Source: a virus
Lineage: Duplodnaviria > Caudoviricetes
Reading direction: 5' to 3' (one strand)
IMG/VR virus record: IMGVR_UViG_3300029983_000418
Coordinates: 1-28,993 of that record
Length of the DNA: 28,993 nucleotides
Of the stretch, positions 6,529 through 28,954 are shown piece after piece (within the stretch, counting starts at the first letter, position 1; each line of letters starts with the position of its first letter). The notes below the pieces were generated by a model. The model was not told the DNA's origin and made no database searches. It saw nothing but the letters and a program-made list of their open reading frames with translations. The position numbers and the translations under genes were made by a program.

Positions 6529-6924
6529 ATGATCGATACTATTTTTCATACCGAGCGAGAAGACGAACTTCATTATATGCCCTATTCTGTCTACCTCAAA
6601 ACGCCGGAGTGGTTAGCAACGCGTGAGCGGATCTTGCTCCGTGACGGCTACCGGTGTCGTTTATGCGGGCGAGATAGGGCATGTAAAGACAGCCAGGGTC
6701 GGGCTATCGTGTTAGTCGTACATCACAACTCCTACGATCATCGAGGCTATGAATTAGATCATGAACTGATCACTCTCTGCAAACAAGAACACGATCTTTT
6801 TCATGCCATGAATCCAGATTTCCCCCGATCCTACGGTAGACCAAAGAAGCAACGAACGATAAAACGAGCAGAAAAGCGCAACACCGATCCCAAAACATTG
6901 CCGAAAATGCGTATGCTGTTTTGA
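6529..6924 (+). CDS. HNH endonuclease
   Basis: YLKTPEW..R..ILLRDGYRCRLCG, VHH, LITLCKQEH..FH; AGGAGG RBS. Confidence 0.85.
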   Translation: MIDTIFHTEREDELHYMPYSVYLKTPEWLATRERILLRDGYRCRLCGRDRACKDSQGRAIVLVVHHNSYDHRGYELDHELITLCKQEHDLFHAMNPDFPRSYGRPKKQRTIKRAEKRNTDPKTLPKMRMLF

Positions 6925-12857: not shown

Positions 12858-13757
12858 ATGTCTAAAGCTTATCCATTCGCTGTTGCCGACTCAAGAGGCT
12901 TAGATCTTGCCACTATCCAGCATCATGTACCGTCAATTTTTGCTTCTGAGAAGCATGATAGCCGCTCACAGCGTTACACCTATATCCCAACATCCATTAT
13001 CCTCGAACAGCTCTCTAAAGAGGGCTTTGTCGTCACTGCCGCTATGCAGTCACGGTCACGCATCGAGGGCAAGACTGAGTACACAAAGCACCTTGTGCGT
13101 TTGTGCCACCGTAACGAACTGGCAAAGCAGAACCGCATTGAGGCTGTACTTATCAATTCCCACGATGGCACTTCTGCTTACAAGCTTCTGCAAGGTATGT
13201 TCCGTATGGTCTGTTCTAACGGGCAGATATCCGGGGACTACCAGACACCTATCAGCATTCATCATAAAGGCGATATTGCTAGCAACGTCGTCGAGGGCAC
13301 TTTGCGTATTATTGAAGAGAGCGGCGAACTTGCCAACTCCATCGAAGAGATGAGCCACATCTCCCTCTCACGACCCGAACAAGCACTCTTGTCTGAACTT
13401 TCCATGCGTGCCCGCTACGGTCAAGTCGAAGAAGTCGATCCCGATACCGGCATTGTCGTTGTAGGGAATGCGCCCGTTGCGTTTCGCCCAGAACAATTCT
13501 TACGCGCCCGGCGCCGTGAGGACTCCACAGACAGCAACATGAATCGCTCACTTTGGGTTACAGAGAATGTCATTCAAGAGAACATGATGCGTGGCGGCAT
13601 TGCTACCCGTGACGAACGTGGCAAAAAGCACTCCACACGCGCCGTCAACAGCGTTGACACCAACGTCAAACTAAACCAGTTGCTATGGGGACTAGCCGAA
13701 GGGATGAAAAAGATCAAGCAAGGTGCTGACATTGAGAGCCTCTTGTCTACCATGTAG
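12858..13757 (+). CDS. DUF932 (YubP/YfjQ-like) protein
   Basis: VPSIFA..KHDSRSQRYTYIPT, TKHLVRL, LINSHDGTSAY, GMFRMVCSNG, NVKLNQLLW. Confidence 0.9.
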   Translation: MSKAYPFAVADSRGLDLATIQHHVPSIFASEKHDSRSQRYTYIPTSIILEQLSKEGFVVTAAMQSRSRIEGKTEYTKHLVRLCHRNELAKQNRIEAVLINSHDGTSAYKLLQGMFRMVCSNGQISGDYQTPISIHHKGDIASNVVEGTLRIIEESGELANSIEEMSHISLSRPEQALLSELSMRARYGQVEEVDPDTGIVVVGNAPVAFRPEQFLRARRREDSTDSNMNRSLWVTENVIQENMMRGGIATRDERGKKHSTRAVNSVDTNVKLNQLLWGLAEGMKKIKQGADIESLLSTM

Positions 13758-25127: not shown

Positions 25128-25628
25128 ATGGCACCACCACGCACAAAAAGAAAACAGAAGATGCGCGACGAAGATGTAAACTACGCGCTTCGTGCTCATA
25201 TGGCGCTCGAACTACGCATAAAAGAGCGTCTCTCGTACGGTGAAATCGCACAGCGTTGCGGCTATGCACATGAGAACGTTGTCAAGCAAATAATCAAAAA
25301 AGAGATAGAGCGCACGATTGTTCATGACGTTGAAGAGTTGCGGGCACAAGAGGGCTTGACGTACGATATCCTGCAAGCTGAGTGCATGAAAATGTTTTTT
25401 GACTCTTCAAACAAGGGGCAATTATGGGCACTTGATCGCATTCTGATCATCATGCAGCAACGTGCCAAGCTCTACGGCCTGGACGCGAAAGAAGATCAAC
25501 AACAGATACAGACGGTCCTTGTTCGCCAGATACCAGCCGGGTACTTCGGGGCCATTGATTCCATGCCACAAGGACAGTTGGCAGAGGCAAAACAAATGCC
25601 CCCGATCATGGAGGAACGTGAAGATTGA
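25128..25628 (+). CDS. terS: Probable terminase small subunit
   Basis: N-terminal HTH (ALELRIKERLSYGEIAQRCGY), helical oligomerisation-like region, position upstream of terL. Confidence 0.6.
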   Translation: MAPPRTKRKQKMRDEDVNYALRAHMALELRIKERLSYGEIAQRCGYAHENVVKQIIKKEIERTIVHDVEELRAQEGLTYDILQAECMKMFFDSSNKGQLWALDRILIIMQQRAKLYGLDAKEDQQQIQTVLVRQIPAGYFGAIDSMPQGQLAEAKQMPPIMEERED

Positions 25629-25658: not shown

Positions 25659-26219
25659 ATGAGTACATTCTATGGCGACAACTGGAAGTTTAGTATCATC
25701 GGGGACATCTCACCATCAGGCAACATAATGCCTCGGCCATTTGATATGCAAGCATACATCAAGAGCATAGACGGGGTGAGTGAGTGGCTTGCCTCTCTGC
25801 CATTTGACGATGAGAATTATGAGTTAAGCGTGGATGTACGGGCTTCAGCACACGATATCACACCAATTGGCAATCAATACAAGCTTAATTCACTGATTAT
25901 GGCAATCTACAAGGTAAAGCTCAGACGAATAGTAGGGGGATTAGAAGAGGTATTTTTAGCAACGTTTCACAACGGTCAGAAGTGTGATGAGTCGTATACC
26001 GCAACGATTATCCCTAAACCTCCCTATCTACCAGTCACTTTTAAAGGGGAGTATGCCGACTTTACCGATGCCTCAAAATGGTCTCTCTCTTTGCCAACTC
26101 CAAAGAACGAATTAGAGAAGTTTCATGAAGAGCTTATCGAGGCCATGCATGAACCGGTTATAGACACACCGGATGATGACGATGAGGAAGAAGACTACTA
26201 TGATCAGGTATGGAGGTGA
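25659..26219 (+). CDS. Hypothetical protein
   Basis: GGGAGG RBS; acidic tail. Confidence 0.65.
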   Translation: MSTFYGDNWKFSIIGDISPSGNIMPRPFDMQAYIKSIDGVSEWLASLPFDDENYELSVDVRASAHDITPIGNQYKLNSLIMAIYKVKLRRIVGGLEEVFLATFHNGQKCDESYTATIIPKPPYLPVTFKGEYADFTDASKWSLSLPTPKNELEKFHEELIEAMHEPVIDTPDDDDEEEDYYDQVWR

Positions 26220-26224
26220 TAGAA

Positions 26225-26596
26225 ATGACTGGTGAAAAGTTTATTCATGCCGCCCGGCGCATCATGGATACAACCCCGATGGGGGACTATGATAGTTTCT
26301 CGAAAACGCTCTATGAGTTTGCAGAACACGTACTCAGCGAGGTGGGGTATGCTGATCGGATCGATGAAGTAAGGGACTACAAGCCAGAGACGCCGCCGCA
26401 ACTCCCACCGTATAGCGGATTCGCTATCGTGGGTGAAACAGGGCCGGAATCAGTACATATAGCAGGGAAAGGTGTGAAGGTCTATGTGAATGCATCAGAG
26501 TTATCTTCAGCATTCACCGATGCCTCAAAGTGGAAGCTTAGTATGGAGCATGTACGCAATTGGAGTGCTGTTATGCATGGAACATGGGTAAAGTAA
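26225..26596 (+). CDS. Hypothetical protein
   Basis: GGAGGTG RBS; contains VGETGPE. Confidence 0.6.
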   Translation: MTGEKFIHAARRIMDTTPMGDYDSFSKTLYEFAEHVLSEVGYADRIDEVRDYKPETPPQLPPYSGFAIVGETGPESVHIAGKGVKVYVNASELSSAFTDASKWKLSMEHVRNWSAVMHGTWVK

Positions 26597-26599
26597 TAC

Positions 26600-28954
26600 G
26601 TGATAGAAGAGGTGATCACACCCCCTGAGCTACGCGGGGCGGCATTAGAACTAGGCAAGTGTACAGACCTAGAGGTCTGTATGGATGGCCCTGCGGGTTG
26701 TATAGCAGGTGAAACCAGAATATACAACCCGATCACCGGTACACATACGCCGATTAGGGATCTCTATAGAGATAGTATAGCACCAATAGTGCAAACGCTC
26801 AGAGGTGCTATACAAGCTGAGAAACCTTTTATAAAGGGAGTTGCAGATCTCTTTAGAGTGAGAACACGCTCAGGCCGGGAGTGTACTATTACTGGCAACC
26901 ATCTATTTCTGACACCGGGCGGGTGGCGCTACGCCTCTTCGTTGCAGATCGGTTTACCCCTTCTTGTATCCGCTTCACCCCTTCATCAGACCATTGAGGC
27001 GTCTTACCCCTCAATGTCTCTGCAAGATGCATGGCATTTGAGCCAAAAAGCTCAAGGTTATCAACATGATTGTTTTGCCTGTCATTATCACGGTGATGCA
27101 CAACTTCTTGCGGGTCAAGATATCGCCCTATCTTTGCCTCTACTACAAGGCGATGCTCACGCACATACCCGTGACGATCCTTATAGGGATGATCGGGGCT
27201 TTTTACGAGAATATACCCATCCTCATCTACCATACGCCCCCCTTTCCATGCCGGATTATTTTGCATCTTCTGTTCAAAGGGAATATAATCAATGTCATGG
27301 TCAACGAGAAACTTCTTTACTAACTGATGCTTTGTTCCAATACGACGGGCAATCTCAGATAGAGAAATGCCTTGTTGCGCCCATGCTATCACATTGTCCT
27401 GATGTTGATAGCATGCCCCTCCATGAGCCTTTGTCAGTTCAATACCCCTTCTCTTCAGTAAACCGGTTACGCGACGAGGGGGTAAGCCTAGCTCTTGAGC
27501 AGTCAAAACAGTGCTCTTCGTTCTCTGATACGACTCAAGAATACTCTGTATTTCCTGGTCAGATGCGTGATGATATCCTTTCATTTCATACCTCCAATAG
27601 TGATTATACAGCACAATGGGATACGGTATCAAGTATTGAGTACGTTCGTACTGATGAGTACTATGATCTCCATGTACCGCATGCACACCACTATTTAGCT
27701 GAAGGTATGTGGCATCACAACACTGGAAAAACGTTCGCGTGCTTATATAAAGTGCATATGATGCTTACGTATTTCCCCGGTACGAAGGCGCTTGTTGCAC
27801 GCAAAACAAGCGTAGCACTTGCCTCGACTGCTATCGCAACGTATAAATCGATGATCGATCCCCGTGAGGGCATTACCTTCTTTTCTGGCAACCGCATACG
27901 CCCCGCCGCATTTGAATACCCCAACGGTTCACAGATGATCCTCACTGGTCTCGATAAGCCTGAGAAGGTGAAGTCACTTGAGATCGACCTTGCCTACATC
28001 AATGAAGCAACTGAATGCGACTTGCAAGATCTAGAGTTTGTTCGTTCCCGTCTTAGACATGGGAAACTTCCCTATTATCAAGTCATCATGGACGTAAACC
28101 CGGAGGGGCCGTCACACTGGCTTAACTTGCGCATGAATAGCGGAGTGACAAAGCGGCTTGTCTCACGCTTTGAGGATAACCCCCGTTTCTATGACGCTGA
28201 TGGGCGGCTCACCCCCGATGGTGATATGTACATCAATAAGATCCTGGCAGGTTTAACAGGCGTACGCCTCATGCGTCTCTTCTATGGCAAGTGGGTAGGA
28301 GCAGAGGGTTCTATTTATGCCGATACGTGGGATAGACGCCGCAACGTTATCAAGCCATTCCGTATCCCCGCAGATTGGCCCCGCTATCTGGCGGTTGACT
28401 TTGGATTTAAACACCCCTTTGTCTGTCTCTGGATTGCCGTTGATCCTGATGGGCGGCTCATCTTGTACAGAGAGTGGTATAAAACAAACATGATCGTAGA
28501 AGATCATGCAAAAGTCATCAAGCGGCTATCGAGATGGGGACAACCGGGGGGAGAACCACCACCACGGCAGATTATTTGTGACCATGACGCTGAAGATAGA
28601 GCCACGCTAGAGCGGCATCTCGGCATGATGACCACCAAAGCCTATAAGGAAGTGCGCTCAGGTATCCAGGCTGTTCAAGCGCGTTTTCGTGATGCAGGAG
28701 ACGGACGCGCACGCTTTGAAGTCTTTGAGAATGCACTGGTTGAACGTGACGCTATTCTCGATGCTGAAAAGAAACCTATCGGCTTCATAGAAGAGGTCGA
28801 CTCATATGTATGGGCGATGAATCACGATGGGAGTTATAGAAATGATGAACCCGTAAAAGAGTATGATCATAGCTGTGATCCGGTTCGCTATATTTGCGCA
28901 CGTTTTGACCGTACGCCCGGTAAACCGACATATAAGAAGACGATATGGAAATAG
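26600..28954 (+). CDS. terL: Terminase large subunit (PBSX-like), intein-containing; 443 aa after splicing
   Basis: Spliced Walker A GPAGTGKT, Walker B AYINEATE, DVNP coupling motif, RNase H-like AVDFGF and DHSCDPVRY. Confidence 0.93.
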   Translation: MIEEVITPPELRGAALELGKCTDLEVCMDGPAGCIAGETRIYNPITGTHTPIRDLYRDSIAPIVQTLRGAIQAEKPFIKGVADLFRVRTRSGRECTITGNHLFLTPGGWRYASSLQIGLPLLVSASPLHQTIEASYPSMSLQDAWHLSQKAQGYQHDCFACHYHGDAQLLAGQDIALSLPLLQGDAHAHTRDDPYRDDRGFLREYTHPHLPYAPLSMPDYFASSVQREYNQCHGQRETSLLTDALFQYDGQSQIEKCLVAPMLSHCPDVDSMPLHEPLSVQYPFSSVNRLRDEGVSLALEQSKQCSSFSDTTQEYSVFPGQMRDDILSFHTSNSDYTAQWDTVSSIEYVRTDEYYDLHVPHAHHYLAEGMWHHNTGKTFACLYKVHMMLTYFPGTKALVARKTSVALASTAIATYKSMIDPREGITFFSGNRIRPAAFEYPNGSQMILTGLDKPEKVKSLEIDLAYINEATECDLQDLEFVRSRLRHGKLPYYQVIMDVNPEGPSHWLNLRMNSGVTKRLVSRFEDNPRFYDADGRLTPDGDMYINKILAGLTGVRLMRLFYGKWVGAEGSIYADTWDRRRNVIKPFRIPADWPRYLAVDFGFKHPFVCLWIAVDPDGRLILYREWYKTNMIVEDHAKVIKRLSRWGQPGGEPPPRQIICDHDAEDRATLERHLGMMTTKAYKEVRSGIQAVQARFRDAGDGRARFEVFENALVERDAILDAEKKPIGFIEEVDSYVWAMNHDGSYRNDEPVKEYDHSCDPVRYICARFDRTPGKPTYKKTIWK
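26889..27584 (-). CDS. HTH-HNH putative homing endonuclease (231 aa), antisense within the intein
   Basis: Two HTH-like repeats, NPAWKGG, DGYILV, EHRLVVE..GRYL...EVVHHRDNDRQNNHVDNL; GGAGG RBS 6 nt before ATG. Confidence 0.9.
   Translation of the reverse strand: MKGYHHASDQEIQSILESYQRTKSTVLTAQELGLPPRRVTGLLKRRGIELTKAHGGACYQHQDNVIAWAQQGISLSEIARRIGTKHQLVKKFLVDHDIDYIPFEQKMQNNPAWKGGRMVDEDGYILVKSPDHPYKDRHGYVREHRLVVEAKIGRYLDPQEVVHHRDNDRQNNHVDNLELFGSNAMHLAETLRGKTPQWSDEGVKRIQEGVNRSATKRRSATRPVSEIDGCQ
27591..27632 (-). promoter_or_regulatory. sigma70 promoter and RBS for the antisense HNH gene
   Basis: Minus strand reads TTGATA-18 bp-TATAAT-cactatt-GGAGG-tatgaa-ATG. Confidence 0.75.

Follow-up and report, generated by a model that had tools for sequence, protein, structure and literature searches.

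An antisense HNH nuclease gene within a predicted intein of a phage terminase gene

Background

Canonical bifunctional inteins carry a LAGLIDADG or HNH nuclease in frame inside the polypeptide that is cut out. Other layouts were described by Gosselin, Arsenault and Gogarten, whose actinobacteriophage inteins include some with an antisense nuclease of the LAGLIDADG or VSR-like type (bioRxiv 10.1101/2025.01.02.630785). In the sections covered, these architectures are called rare (63/784 non-canonical), many non-canonical inteins are placed in terminase genes, and the cyanobacterial DnaX intein is listed as anti-sense. Genes for HNH proteins adjoining terminases are also described in the part covered of another study (PMC3592412).

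The window analysed here is the whole 28,993-nt stretch of an uncultured tailed-phage record (IMGVR_UViG_3300029983_000418; Duplodnaviria, Caudoviricetes). Its terminase gene contains an intein with an HNH gene on the opposite strand. The layout is real and widespread, and is an HNH version of the arrangement already described for other nucleases.

The terL gene and its intein

The terminase region consists of the following features.

26600..28954, plus strand: terL precursor ORF, 784 aa, stop-free; PBSX-like terminase large subunit with an intein
26600..26698, plus strand: N-extein, 33 aa; its C-terminal end is the first half of the Walker A motif (DGPAG)
26699..27721, plus strand: class 1 intein, 341 aa, with C1, T65-x-x-H68, D323 and H340-N341
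26699..26974, plus strand: N-terminal splicing region of the intein, aa 1-92; pLDDT 96-99 for aa 1-90
26975..27607, plus strand: in-frame insert, aa 93-303; without stops, predicted unstructured, the antisense shadow of the HNH gene
27608..27721, plus strand: C-terminal splicing region of the intein, aa 304-341
27722..28954, plus strand: C-extein, 410 aa; its first residue is the +1 Thr of TGKT
25128..25628, plus strand: candidate terminase small subunit, assigned from position and weak HTH-like matches; context only

A sequence-only reading had proposed a complete intein in TerL, and this is borne out from C1 at 26699 through TGNH (intein aa 65-68) to the HHN end at 27721 and the +1 Thr. Profile searches recover it with Pfam Intein_splicing (E 3.9e-11) and over the cut-off of TIGR01445. 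The whole class 1 residue set is present (C1, block B TxxH, block F Asp, terminal His-Asn and +1 Thr), and C1, H68, D323 and N341 show no variation across 62 inteins. The intein model has a Hint fold, with RecA and DnaB mini-inteins matched at E 1e-7 to 1e-6. Intein-free TerL homologs read DGPAG/TGKT at the insertion point, which is the Walker A motif, and the intein-less junction given in the earlier reading was checked as GGCCCTGCGGGT/ACTGGAAAAACG. A mini-intein at the same TerL site (P0012) retains the N-terminal splicing region. The TerL precursor is predicted to be spliced to a 443-aa TerL (33+410) and a 341-aa intein in which 211 aa form a floppy loop; these lengths, computed from the sequence, agree with those first proposed.

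Because the window is an uncultured contig, an assembly artefact might be suspected, or an RNA-level intron instead of an intein. The terL gene is identical (0 differences) in five other IMG/VR contigs, which excludes an assembly error, and the layout is also carried by eight cultured Pectobacterium/Dickeya phages and by Pseudoalteromonas phage PHS3. With the complete intein motif set and the modelled Hint fold also standing against it, this explanation is left with a negligible probability. One metatranscriptome had 12% of the words, which came down to a single 200-nt contig (26745-26942) carrying neither strand nor level information and given no weight as evidence.

The antisense HNH gene

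The nuclease gene lies within the intein on the minus strand.

26889..27584, minus strand: antisense gene for an HNH nuclease of 231 aa, made up of two HTH modules at the N-terminus, the nuclease core and a C-terminal helix
27003..27275, minus strand: nuclease core (aa 104-194), which aligns to I-HmuI 10-105

The HTH-HTH-HNH protein that had been recognised from the sequence alone at 27584-26889 matches Pfam HNH_3 (E 1.6e-9) and PHROG HNH (E 8.6e-32); the Pfam matches to the HTH modules are weak and were found on a longer GTG-start form. About 28 codons at the 3' end of the gene lie over the N-terminal splicing region, where the stop overlaps intein aa 64 next to TGNH. Residues H164, N172, N176 and N183 are invariant in 68 sequences; H186 is also invariant. 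The catalytic motif is present in 127/129 HNH loci, where 13 rows showing a stop represent natural C-terminal stops at the end of the alignment. The protein matches residues 68-89 of PDB 1u3e at E 0.005, and its model gives a modest match to I-HmuI (VIA Z 6.7, rmsd 4.7, 84 aligned; Foldseek E 0.18, prob 0.96). A Foldseek search with the model returned nothing at E 0.001, and phmmer gave no relevant solved structure for the nuclease core by itself. The HTH of I-HmuI is located at its C-terminus, whereas both HTH modules here are N-terminal to the core. The second HNH gene of the window (6529-6924) is unrelated to the antisense gene (E 0.11).

Coding on the two strands

On the plus strand the insert is motif-free, as first described, with no family match in Pfam/TIGRFAM/PHROG-type profile searches. 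In the predicted structure its mean pLDDT is 39-53 per 10-residue block, compared with 96-99 in most splicing blocks. A known endonuclease fold in this frame, which the sequence-only reading had named as one of the results that would count against it, was not seen; there is no family match and the loop is of low pLDDT. When the HNH gene was recoded synonymously, the TerL frame was open in 0/5000 recodings, with a mean of 8.3 stops, so the layout is not due to chance. The open frame in 129/129 loci is true by construction of the set and has no weight as evidence.

Selection acts on the HNH frame, at the protein level. In pairs more than 90% identical, the first, second and third HNH codon positions differ at 0.021, 0.019 and 0.10. 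Relatives are 41% identical to the window in the HNH frame and 18% in the intein frame, and the HNH frame is the higher in 128/128 of them. In the closest relative with DNA (L217) the HNH is 69% identical and the sense insert 34%, compared with 69% for the N-terminal splicing part and 61% for the extein. In sense, the insert appears to be constrained mainly against stops and frameshifts. The in-frame nuclease of a canonical bifunctional intein is therefore absent here, as judged from the profile searches, the low-pLDDT loop and the selection on the other strand.

Alternatively, the antisense ORF could be a relic that is silent, or could arise from sense-strand codon structure, in an intein that is decaying and vertically inherited. 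Decay does occur in the family, where the HNH is truncated in L240 and degenerate in L298 and ten mini-inteins are found. The third-position excess and selection on the HNH frame largely refute this explanation, and the intact catalytic motif, promoter-like site and Shine-Dalgarno sequence also oppose it; it is highly improbable.

Promoter and start signals

Two signals precede the HNH gene.

27590..27595, minus strand: Shine-Dalgarno-like GGAGGT, 5 nt before the ATG at 27584, from the sequence
27603..27632, minus strand: sigma-70-like promoter TTGATA-18-TATAAT (11/12), with the -10 over intein codons D302-T304 and the -35 over V310-S312

Promoter-like and ribosome-binding signals are conserved at the DNA level. 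No other sigma-70-like site on this strand of the 29-kb window reaches 11/12. Scores of at least 10 occur upstream of the HNH in 29/129 segments, compared with 3 segments on the sense strand and 2 within the HNH. Among the 16 loci nearest by HNH identity, on which the codon counts rest, an exact TATAAT is in register in 9, the Tyr codon at the -10 is TAT in 11/11 (88/235 elsewhere) and the Ser codon at the -35 is TCA in 8/9 (16/192 elsewhere). None of the eight mini-inteins scored reaches 9/12, and in phage Koroua a match at 8/12 was not found. In PHS3 the promoter-like sequence is TTGACA-17-GATAAT. An in-frame ATG is preceded by a Shine-Dalgarno sequence in 55/129 loci (~2 out of frame), and a -10 box of the leaderless type, 5-8 nt upstream of the in-frame ATG, is present in 29/129 (~4 out of frame). 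Neither signal is found at 50/129 loci. Between 26400 and 28400 the minus strand showed no terminator-like site.

Family and distribution

Relatives were found with alignments, as single-sequence searches gave only the same phage and one distant type (L011-L013). Of the 162 non-duplicate related HNH loci, eight are free-standing, and 139 lie opposite an open frame that has intein motifs; these 139 share a single relative frame. The reciprocal search, by splicing motifs, was built on closer splicing-region alignments, the deep intein alignment having no stretch conserved enough for scanning. It recovered 71 distinct inteins, of which 61 have an antisense HNH, 61/61 in one relative frame, ten are mini-inteins and none has another insert. 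The sequence-only reading held that an HNH gene had invaded a mini-intein in reverse orientation. That so divergent a family shares one relative frame argues for an old capture rather than a recent invasion in this phage.

Host genes of antisense-HNH inteins encode terminases, helicases, AAA, SMC, TraG-like and clamp-loader proteins, and the insertion sites are near-exclusively Walker A motifs, across many P-loop enzymes. The 27 extein clusters overstate the number of families because some singletons are incomplete contigs. The annotation of Pectobacterium phage Koroua gives only the terL frame, as hypothetical, and the paper on its genus mentions neither an intein nor an HNH; in PHS3 the HNH is called and terL is cut short. 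Related HNH genes also occur free-standing, as 0305phi8-36 ORF213 and BRkr, and antisense inside two intein-less DNA methylase ORFs (L108, L113).

Probable mobility and empty alleles

The intein is absent from 104 of 120 TerL homologs. On the extein tree its presence in the other 16 requires 11 changes, fewer than the shuffled range of 13-16, which indicates some clustering. All trees were made with FastTree and are unrooted, and the patchy presence is compatible with gain as well as loss. Splicing parts are more similar than exteins (e.g. 76% vs 46%); between Koroua and PHS3 the N-terminal splicing part is 68% identical and the HNH 49%, while the exteins are barely alignable. Among the 120 TerL, no intein-free protein more than 68% identical to that of the window was found.

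The cultured Pseudoalteromonas phage AL (MT002875) has a precise empty site, and its extein is 98.7% identical to that of PHS3 (KX912252), whose intein measures 900 nt. Downstream of the junction the two share 200 nt with 0 mismatches, compared with 61 in the next 915 nt; upstream there are two mismatches, at -1 and -4. The identical 200 nt suggest local recombination, in either direction. The HNH might alternatively have been domesticated as a phage packaging or recombination cofactor, like the terminase-adjacent HNH proteins on record (PMC3592412), rather than being a selfish homing enzyme. Its location within a terminase gene and its purifying selection would be in keeping with such a role. 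Most TerL homologs, and the cultured phage AL, do without the intein, and the same element is found in helicases, AAA, SMC, TraG-like and clamp-loader genes, so that domestication is very unlikely.

A further possibility is that the HNH is expressed and active but a separate parasite for which the intein loop is a safe harbour, cutting away from the junction or at other targets, with intein and nuclease often re-paired. The splicing and HNH trees indeed show weak global congruence (patristic Spearman 0.11 against a permutation maximum of 0.13; identity-based 0.195 vs 0.087), and the free-standing relatives and the copies in methylase ORFs would also fit. However, the nearest neighbours of splicing parts and HNH agree in 47/115 cases, compared with 5 expected, the relative frame is the same in 139/139 and 61/61, the promoter is encoded within intein codons, and the sites are near-exclusively Walker A. 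We consider this alternative unlikely.

Proposed mechanism

In the sequence-only reading, splicing takes place in sense, while the antisense nuclease is expressed separately and drives homing. The reading as a whole is partly supported; this mechanism fits all of the comparative evidence, given the selection on the HNH frame, the conserved promoter and start signals, the patchy distribution and the precise empty alleles. The probable sequence of events is as follows. The class 1 intein in the terminase Walker A motif would be translated in one stop-free terL frame, and the class 1 residues and modelled Hint fold predict splicing that restores the terminase. Host sigma-70 RNA polymerase would produce a short-leader antisense mRNA for the HNH, likely from its own promoter. 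The nuclease, uncoupled from late terL expression, could then be present during replication. Since it resembles I-HmuI, it presumably nicks empty Walker A sites instead of cutting both strands. Recombination would then copy the whole element into such a site, and homing of this kind is suggested by the precise empty alleles and patchy distribution.

A broader history is possible, although we offer it tentatively. One ancient intein clade may have taken up an HNH gene backwards, written a sigma-70 promoter into its own C-terminal splicing codons and so freed the timing of the nuclease from the host gene. P-loop-hopping could then have spread it over terminases, helicases, AAA, SMC, TraG-like and clamp-loader genes, its variable HTH modules being retargeted to Walker A DNA. 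Premature terL expression might in addition be dampened by the antisense transcript, and the HNH cassette, which preserves the frame, might enter intein-less methylase genes.

Antisense-nuclease inteins appear in the literature covered as rare curiosities known from computational study only; here they form a large clade overlooked by annotation. As annotation misses the layout, for instance in Koroua and PHS3, activity may be retained in many inteins that carry the label 'degenerate nuclease'. This family shows a route by which a selfish nuclease could gain its own timing within a late gene, and supports a splicing-first model of intein evolution. It is also a natural example of dual-strand coding in which one frame need only remain without stops. 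With the PHS3/AL pair, on one harmless host species from the sea (P. marina), antisense-driven homing can be tested directly if one strain is infected by both, and the family offers many compact candidate nickases for Walker A DNA as well as inteins that tolerate a 200-aa loop.

Comparison with known systems

The ShiLan phage methylase gene harbours an HNH that is out of frame and has its own start, like the gene described here, but without an intein; the part covered of that paper does not mention antisense or reverse coding (PMC11855218). Fractured genes likewise have a nuclease gene with its own start inside the intein, although their inteins are split and all three ORFs lie on one strand (PMC2677866, as far as covered). 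That reading was rejected for the present locus, where the intein is one continuous ORF and the nuclease is on the opposite strand. I-HmuI and I-BasI, nicking HNH homing endonucleases, have the HNH_3 core in common with the antisense protein (aligned over I-HmuI 10-105), but their genes are described as intron-encoded (PMC3017599, in the part covered).

Canonical bifunctional inteins are like this one in their class 1 splicing residues, Hint fold and location in a nucleotide-binding motif. They differ in having the nuclease in frame, where none is found here; the present nuclease would be independent of host-gene translation or splicing. TerL inteins of Bacillus phages have a related N-terminal splicing region, with no match to the antisense HNH profile. 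The DnaX intein shares overlapping frames, a selected nuclease frame, a disordered in-frame insert, and the co-occurrence of full, mini and empty alleles. Its nuclease is LAGLIDADG, described as a +2 ORF and in one host gene, and the words HNH and promoter are absent from the text covered (bioRxiv 10.64898/2026.09.14.751524).

The closest systems are those of Gosselin et al. The sequence-only reading did not know the present layout as a described intein class. For the architecture this does not hold, as antisense LAGLIDADG and VSR-like forms are described (bioRxiv 10.1101/2025.01.02.630785); for the HNH type it stands, an antisense HNH form not having been found in the literature searched, including the sections covered of that paper. 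In those sections, as here, the intein is contiguous and in frame with its host, the in-frame insert has no recognisable structure, terminases are among the hosts, and a free-standing nuclease is modelled as having invaded the intein. The intact opposite-strand nuclease ORF within a contiguous intein that defines their types B and C is present here, but the LAGLIDADG or VSR-like identity is not, the nuclease being HNH_3; their HNH class is in frame. A promoter is not reported in those sections, whereas here there is a promoter-like site and the HNH ORF overlaps the splicing domain. Finally, the antisense layout is rare in their set, while here a large clade spanning many P-loop families has it as the norm.

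An antisense HNH gene within the terL intein

The window is a single contig of 28,993 bases whose phage genes include a DnaB-like helicase and the terminase large subunit (TerL). The coordinates, motifs and junction that the sequence-only reading had assigned to an intein in terL, with an HNH gene on the opposite strand, were all borne out by ORF, intein motif and homolog comparisons. The features are as follows.

26600-28954, plus strand: terL ORF, no internal stop.
26699 (C1) to 27721 (HHN, then Thr), plus strand: intein of 341 aa, above the cut-offs of Pfam and TIGR intein models.
27584-26889, minus strand: HNH ORF of 231 aa (HNH_3, E 1.6e-9; weak HTH matches; PHROG HNH, E 8.6e-32).
27632-27603, minus strand: sigma-70-like site TTGATA-18-TATAAT (11/12), followed by GGAGGT and then the HNH ATG.

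The intein divides the Walker A motif precisely, since DGPAG and TGKT are contiguous in intein-free homologs. The terL stretch shows no differences from five further IMG/VR contigs. In the AlphaFold model of the intein, pLDDT is 96-99 at residues 1-90 and 88-99 at the C-terminal end, and the insert has block means of 39-53; by structure match the model resembles RecA and DnaB mini-inteins. In addition to what was first described, the HNH gene ends inside the N-terminal splicing region: its last ~28 codons lie there, and its stop falls at intein residue 64. Between a candidate terS and terL, two ORFs (25659-26596, plus strand) without PHROG matches have in common the short motif FTDASKW, which suggests that they are paralogous. 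An intein-free TerL homolog (P0067, 57% identity) comes from a Ktedonobacteraceae genome, a weak hint of the host group.

The model of the HNH protein (mean pLDDT 88) shows two helical modules, then the nuclease core and, last, a long helix. Residues 104-194 align with residues 10-105 of I-HmuI (Z 6.7, rmsd 4.7); Foldseek gives this pair a probability of 0.96 but an E-value of 0.18, and a profile search matches I-HmuI 68-89 (E 0.005), so that the predicted likeness is modest. H164, N172, N176, N183 and H186 show no variation across 68 homologs. Because I-HmuI nicks one strand near its own intron site (PMC3017599), the window protein may likewise nick DNA. A second HNH gene (6529-6924, plus strand) is free-standing and unrelated to the antisense one.

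Family and host range

The family was collected with an alignment of HNH homologs, taking the 80 top-scoring of 580 viral loci, the full set of 26 genome loci and the 80 top-scoring of 567 metagenome loci; the 186 rows examined reduce to 162 non-duplicates, a sample biased to close relatives. An antisense HNH gene in an open frame with intein motifs is seen in 139 of the 162: 108 show both intein ends, 25 the N-end only and 6 the C-end only. All 139 use one relative frame, first codon position opposite first codon position. The other HNH genes lie in another open antisense frame (14), are free-standing (8) or are broken (1). Among the genome loci, where lower scores were reached, 11 of 26 have the antisense-in-intein arrangement.

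Profile refinement gave 129 inteins with both ends defined. All begin with Cys and end in HN (120), KN (8) or AN (1), followed by S, T or C. GK occurs at most 7 residues after the junction in 117 and just before it in 6, with xK variants in 6. Pfam searches on 35 chosen host ORFs identified terminases, SF2 and SNF2 helicases, strawberry-notch-like, AAA, AAA_24, AAA_25, primase-DnaB, SMC/SbcC, TraG-like and clamp-loader families, and 7 of the 35 were without a match.

Of the 105 loci in a reciprocal search with splicing motifs only, one end was missing in 3, and 31 duplicated others. The remaining 71 distinct inteins comprise 61 with the antisense HNH gene in the common frame and 10 mini-inteins (splicing parts without the HNH insert), with no different insert among them. 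Since HNH-bearing inteins supplied the motifs and the two sets share members, this is a property of the clade and not an independent sample. One TerL known as protein only (P0014) has at the same site an intein whose splicing parts are 76% identical but whose 333-aa intein insert is unrelated, possibly another nuclease that this intein captured.

Several loci depart from the common pattern. Clade mini-inteins occur at sites unlike Walker A motifs (L267, L272, L282, L283). Two N6/N4 DNA methylase ORFs, L108:1440-3164(-) and L113:948-3914(-), harbour an antisense HNH gene of this family in the usual relative frame, directly after GFPKSL and with intein motifs absent. Among L240, L298, L110, L058 and L146, decay takes the form of a truncated HNH gene in a 177-aa intein, a catalytic region that has degenerated, and intein frames broken by frameshifts or stops; part of this may be sequencing error. 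A TerL starting within the intein C-terminal part (P0013) and an HNH homolog (P0131), both known as protein only, belong by listed length to one 12,281-base Logan contig, possibly a split or broken intein. In four TerL homologs (P0011, P0114, P0097, P0105) a further intein lies in the nuclease domain close to the C-terminus, following a DHxC motif; P0011 and P0114 have both inteins. In P0011, P0105 and P0114 the long inserts appear motif-free in frame and may conceal out-of-frame nucleases.

Selection on the two strands

Codon and identity tests used the 129 complete inteins, aligned via the HNH protein. Among 22 pairs more than 90% identical, the differences at the first, second and third HNH codon positions are 0.021, 0.019 and 0.10. 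Over the same DNA, mean identity to the window is 41% in the HNH frame versus 18% in the intein frame, and the HNH frame is higher in 128 of 128 comparisons. In the closest relative with DNA (L217), identity is 69% for HNH, 34% for the sense insert, 69% for the splicing N-part and 61% for the extein (the spliced remainder of TerL). Random synonymous recoding of the window HNH gene introduces a mean of 8.3 stops into the TerL frame and left none of 5000 frames open. From the recoding and frame-identity results, therefore, both strands are constrained, one as a nuclease and the other at least to remain open.

Expression signals

No site other than that at 27632-27603 scores at least 11/12 on the window's minus strand. 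The plus strand has three 11/12 sites (6934, 12758 and 20457), none near terL; two lie ~100 nt ahead of ORFs at 12858 and 20548 and are likely early promoters. Upstream of HNH, 29 of 129 inteins score at least 10; the corresponding numbers are 3 for the sense strand of that DNA and 2 within HNH. In the 16 loci nearest by HNH identity, including the window, exact TATAAT is present in a common register in 9, although different residues (D, N, H, Y) are encoded there in the sense frame. Tyr at the -10 box is written TAT in 11 of 11 cases, against 88 of 235 at other places in these genes, and Ser in the -35 box is written TCA in 8 of 9, against 16 of 192; the relatedness of the loci makes these counts non-independent. 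Across the 129, the in-frame ATG is preceded by a Shine-Dalgarno sequence in 55 and by a -10 box 5-8 nt upstream in 29 (both in 5, neither in 50); out-of-frame ATG controls gave ~2 and ~4, respectively. None of the 8 mini-inteins that gave scores, of 10, reaches a 9/12 promoter match.

Distribution and cultured phages

Of 120 TerL homologs, 104 have no intein; the intein is full in 13, mini in 2 and partial in 1. A FastTree tree of the exteins requires 11 changes of the intein label (13-16 in shuffles), and alleles with an intein sit within groups of empty ones. In the splicing parts, identity to the window is 54-76%, above extein identity in 14 of 14 comparisons (e.g. 76% versus 46%). This distribution fits horizontal spread, with gain and loss indistinguishable. 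Splicing and HNH distances correlate weakly overall; the splicing-nearest neighbour is among the top five by HNH in 47 of 115 cases, versus 5 expected.

An HNH match together with a full-length match to the Koroua TerL was found in seven Pectobacterium phages and Dickeya phage Setonix (all eight Ymer-like records). In Koroua (PQ008972) the TerL ORF, of 754 aa and annotated as hypothetical, contains a 288-aa intein with the HNH gene on the opposite strand. The terms 'intein' and 'HNH' are absent from the paper on the genus of Koroua (PMC11445585). Relatives such as KW1E_UTAR, at ~70% identity, have an empty site. Pseudoalteromonas phage PHS3 (KX912252) has a 300-aa intein, an HNH gene in the same frame and a promoter-like site scoring 11/12. 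In its record the HNH gene is called and terL is annotated short; terL actually starts upstream and runs through the intein. Phage AL (MT002875), from the host species of PHS3, has a precise empty site at 98.7% extein identity. The 200 nt downstream of the site are identical in the two, with two synonymous differences at -1 and -4. Between Koroua and PHS3 the splicing N-part is 68% and HNH 49% identical, and the exteins are barely alignable.

Proposed mechanism

Sense translation would yield a precursor predicted to splice, restoring Walker A. Loss of splicing should be lethal, as the intein interrupts the P-loop of an essential gene. The antisense HNH gene is likely transcribed by host RNA polymerase from a promoter embedded in the intein C-terminal codons, and the nuclease would then be present during replication, independent of late terL expression. 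The empty allele of a co-infecting phage would be nicked and repaired from the filled allele. The variable HTH modules probably determine target preference, and the conserved Walker A codons would account for jumps among P-loop genes. Judged from sequence, this scheme of splicing, an antisense promoter of its own and nick-driven homing is, taken whole, quite likely correct.

Comparison with known inteins

Anti-sense cases were reportedly noted by Gorbalenya in 1998 and Gogarten in 2002, as cited by Gosselin, Arsenault and Gogarten. In their preprint, the latter authors distinguish four non-canonical types among 784 inteins (HNH in frame, LAGLIDADG antisense, VSR-like antisense and endonuclease VII in frame 3) and already propose the same invasion model (bioRxiv 10.1101/2025.01.02.630785). 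Phillips et al. report an out-of-frame LAGLIDADG in DnaX under frame-specific selection (bioRxiv 10.64898/2026.09.14.751524). The suggestion that the window intein belongs to no described class is thus wrong as to the architecture, which is already described for antisense LAGLIDADG and VSR-like nucleases, whereas an antisense HNH intein was not found in literature searches, which covered a minority of subscription journals. Fractured genes (PMC2677866) and ShiLan (PMC11855218) are related to the window element, yet different; the elements in the methylase ORFs of L108 and L113 are like that of ShiLan, but on the opposite strand. The window element is real, selected on both strands and widespread. 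The idea is in print, but with so large a clade, a promoter-like site embedded in the intein, a host range centred on Walker A sites and a donor and recipient pair in culture, the proposed mechanism is directly testable. What is new is the type of nuclease, HNH, within a described architecture, and not a new class of intein.
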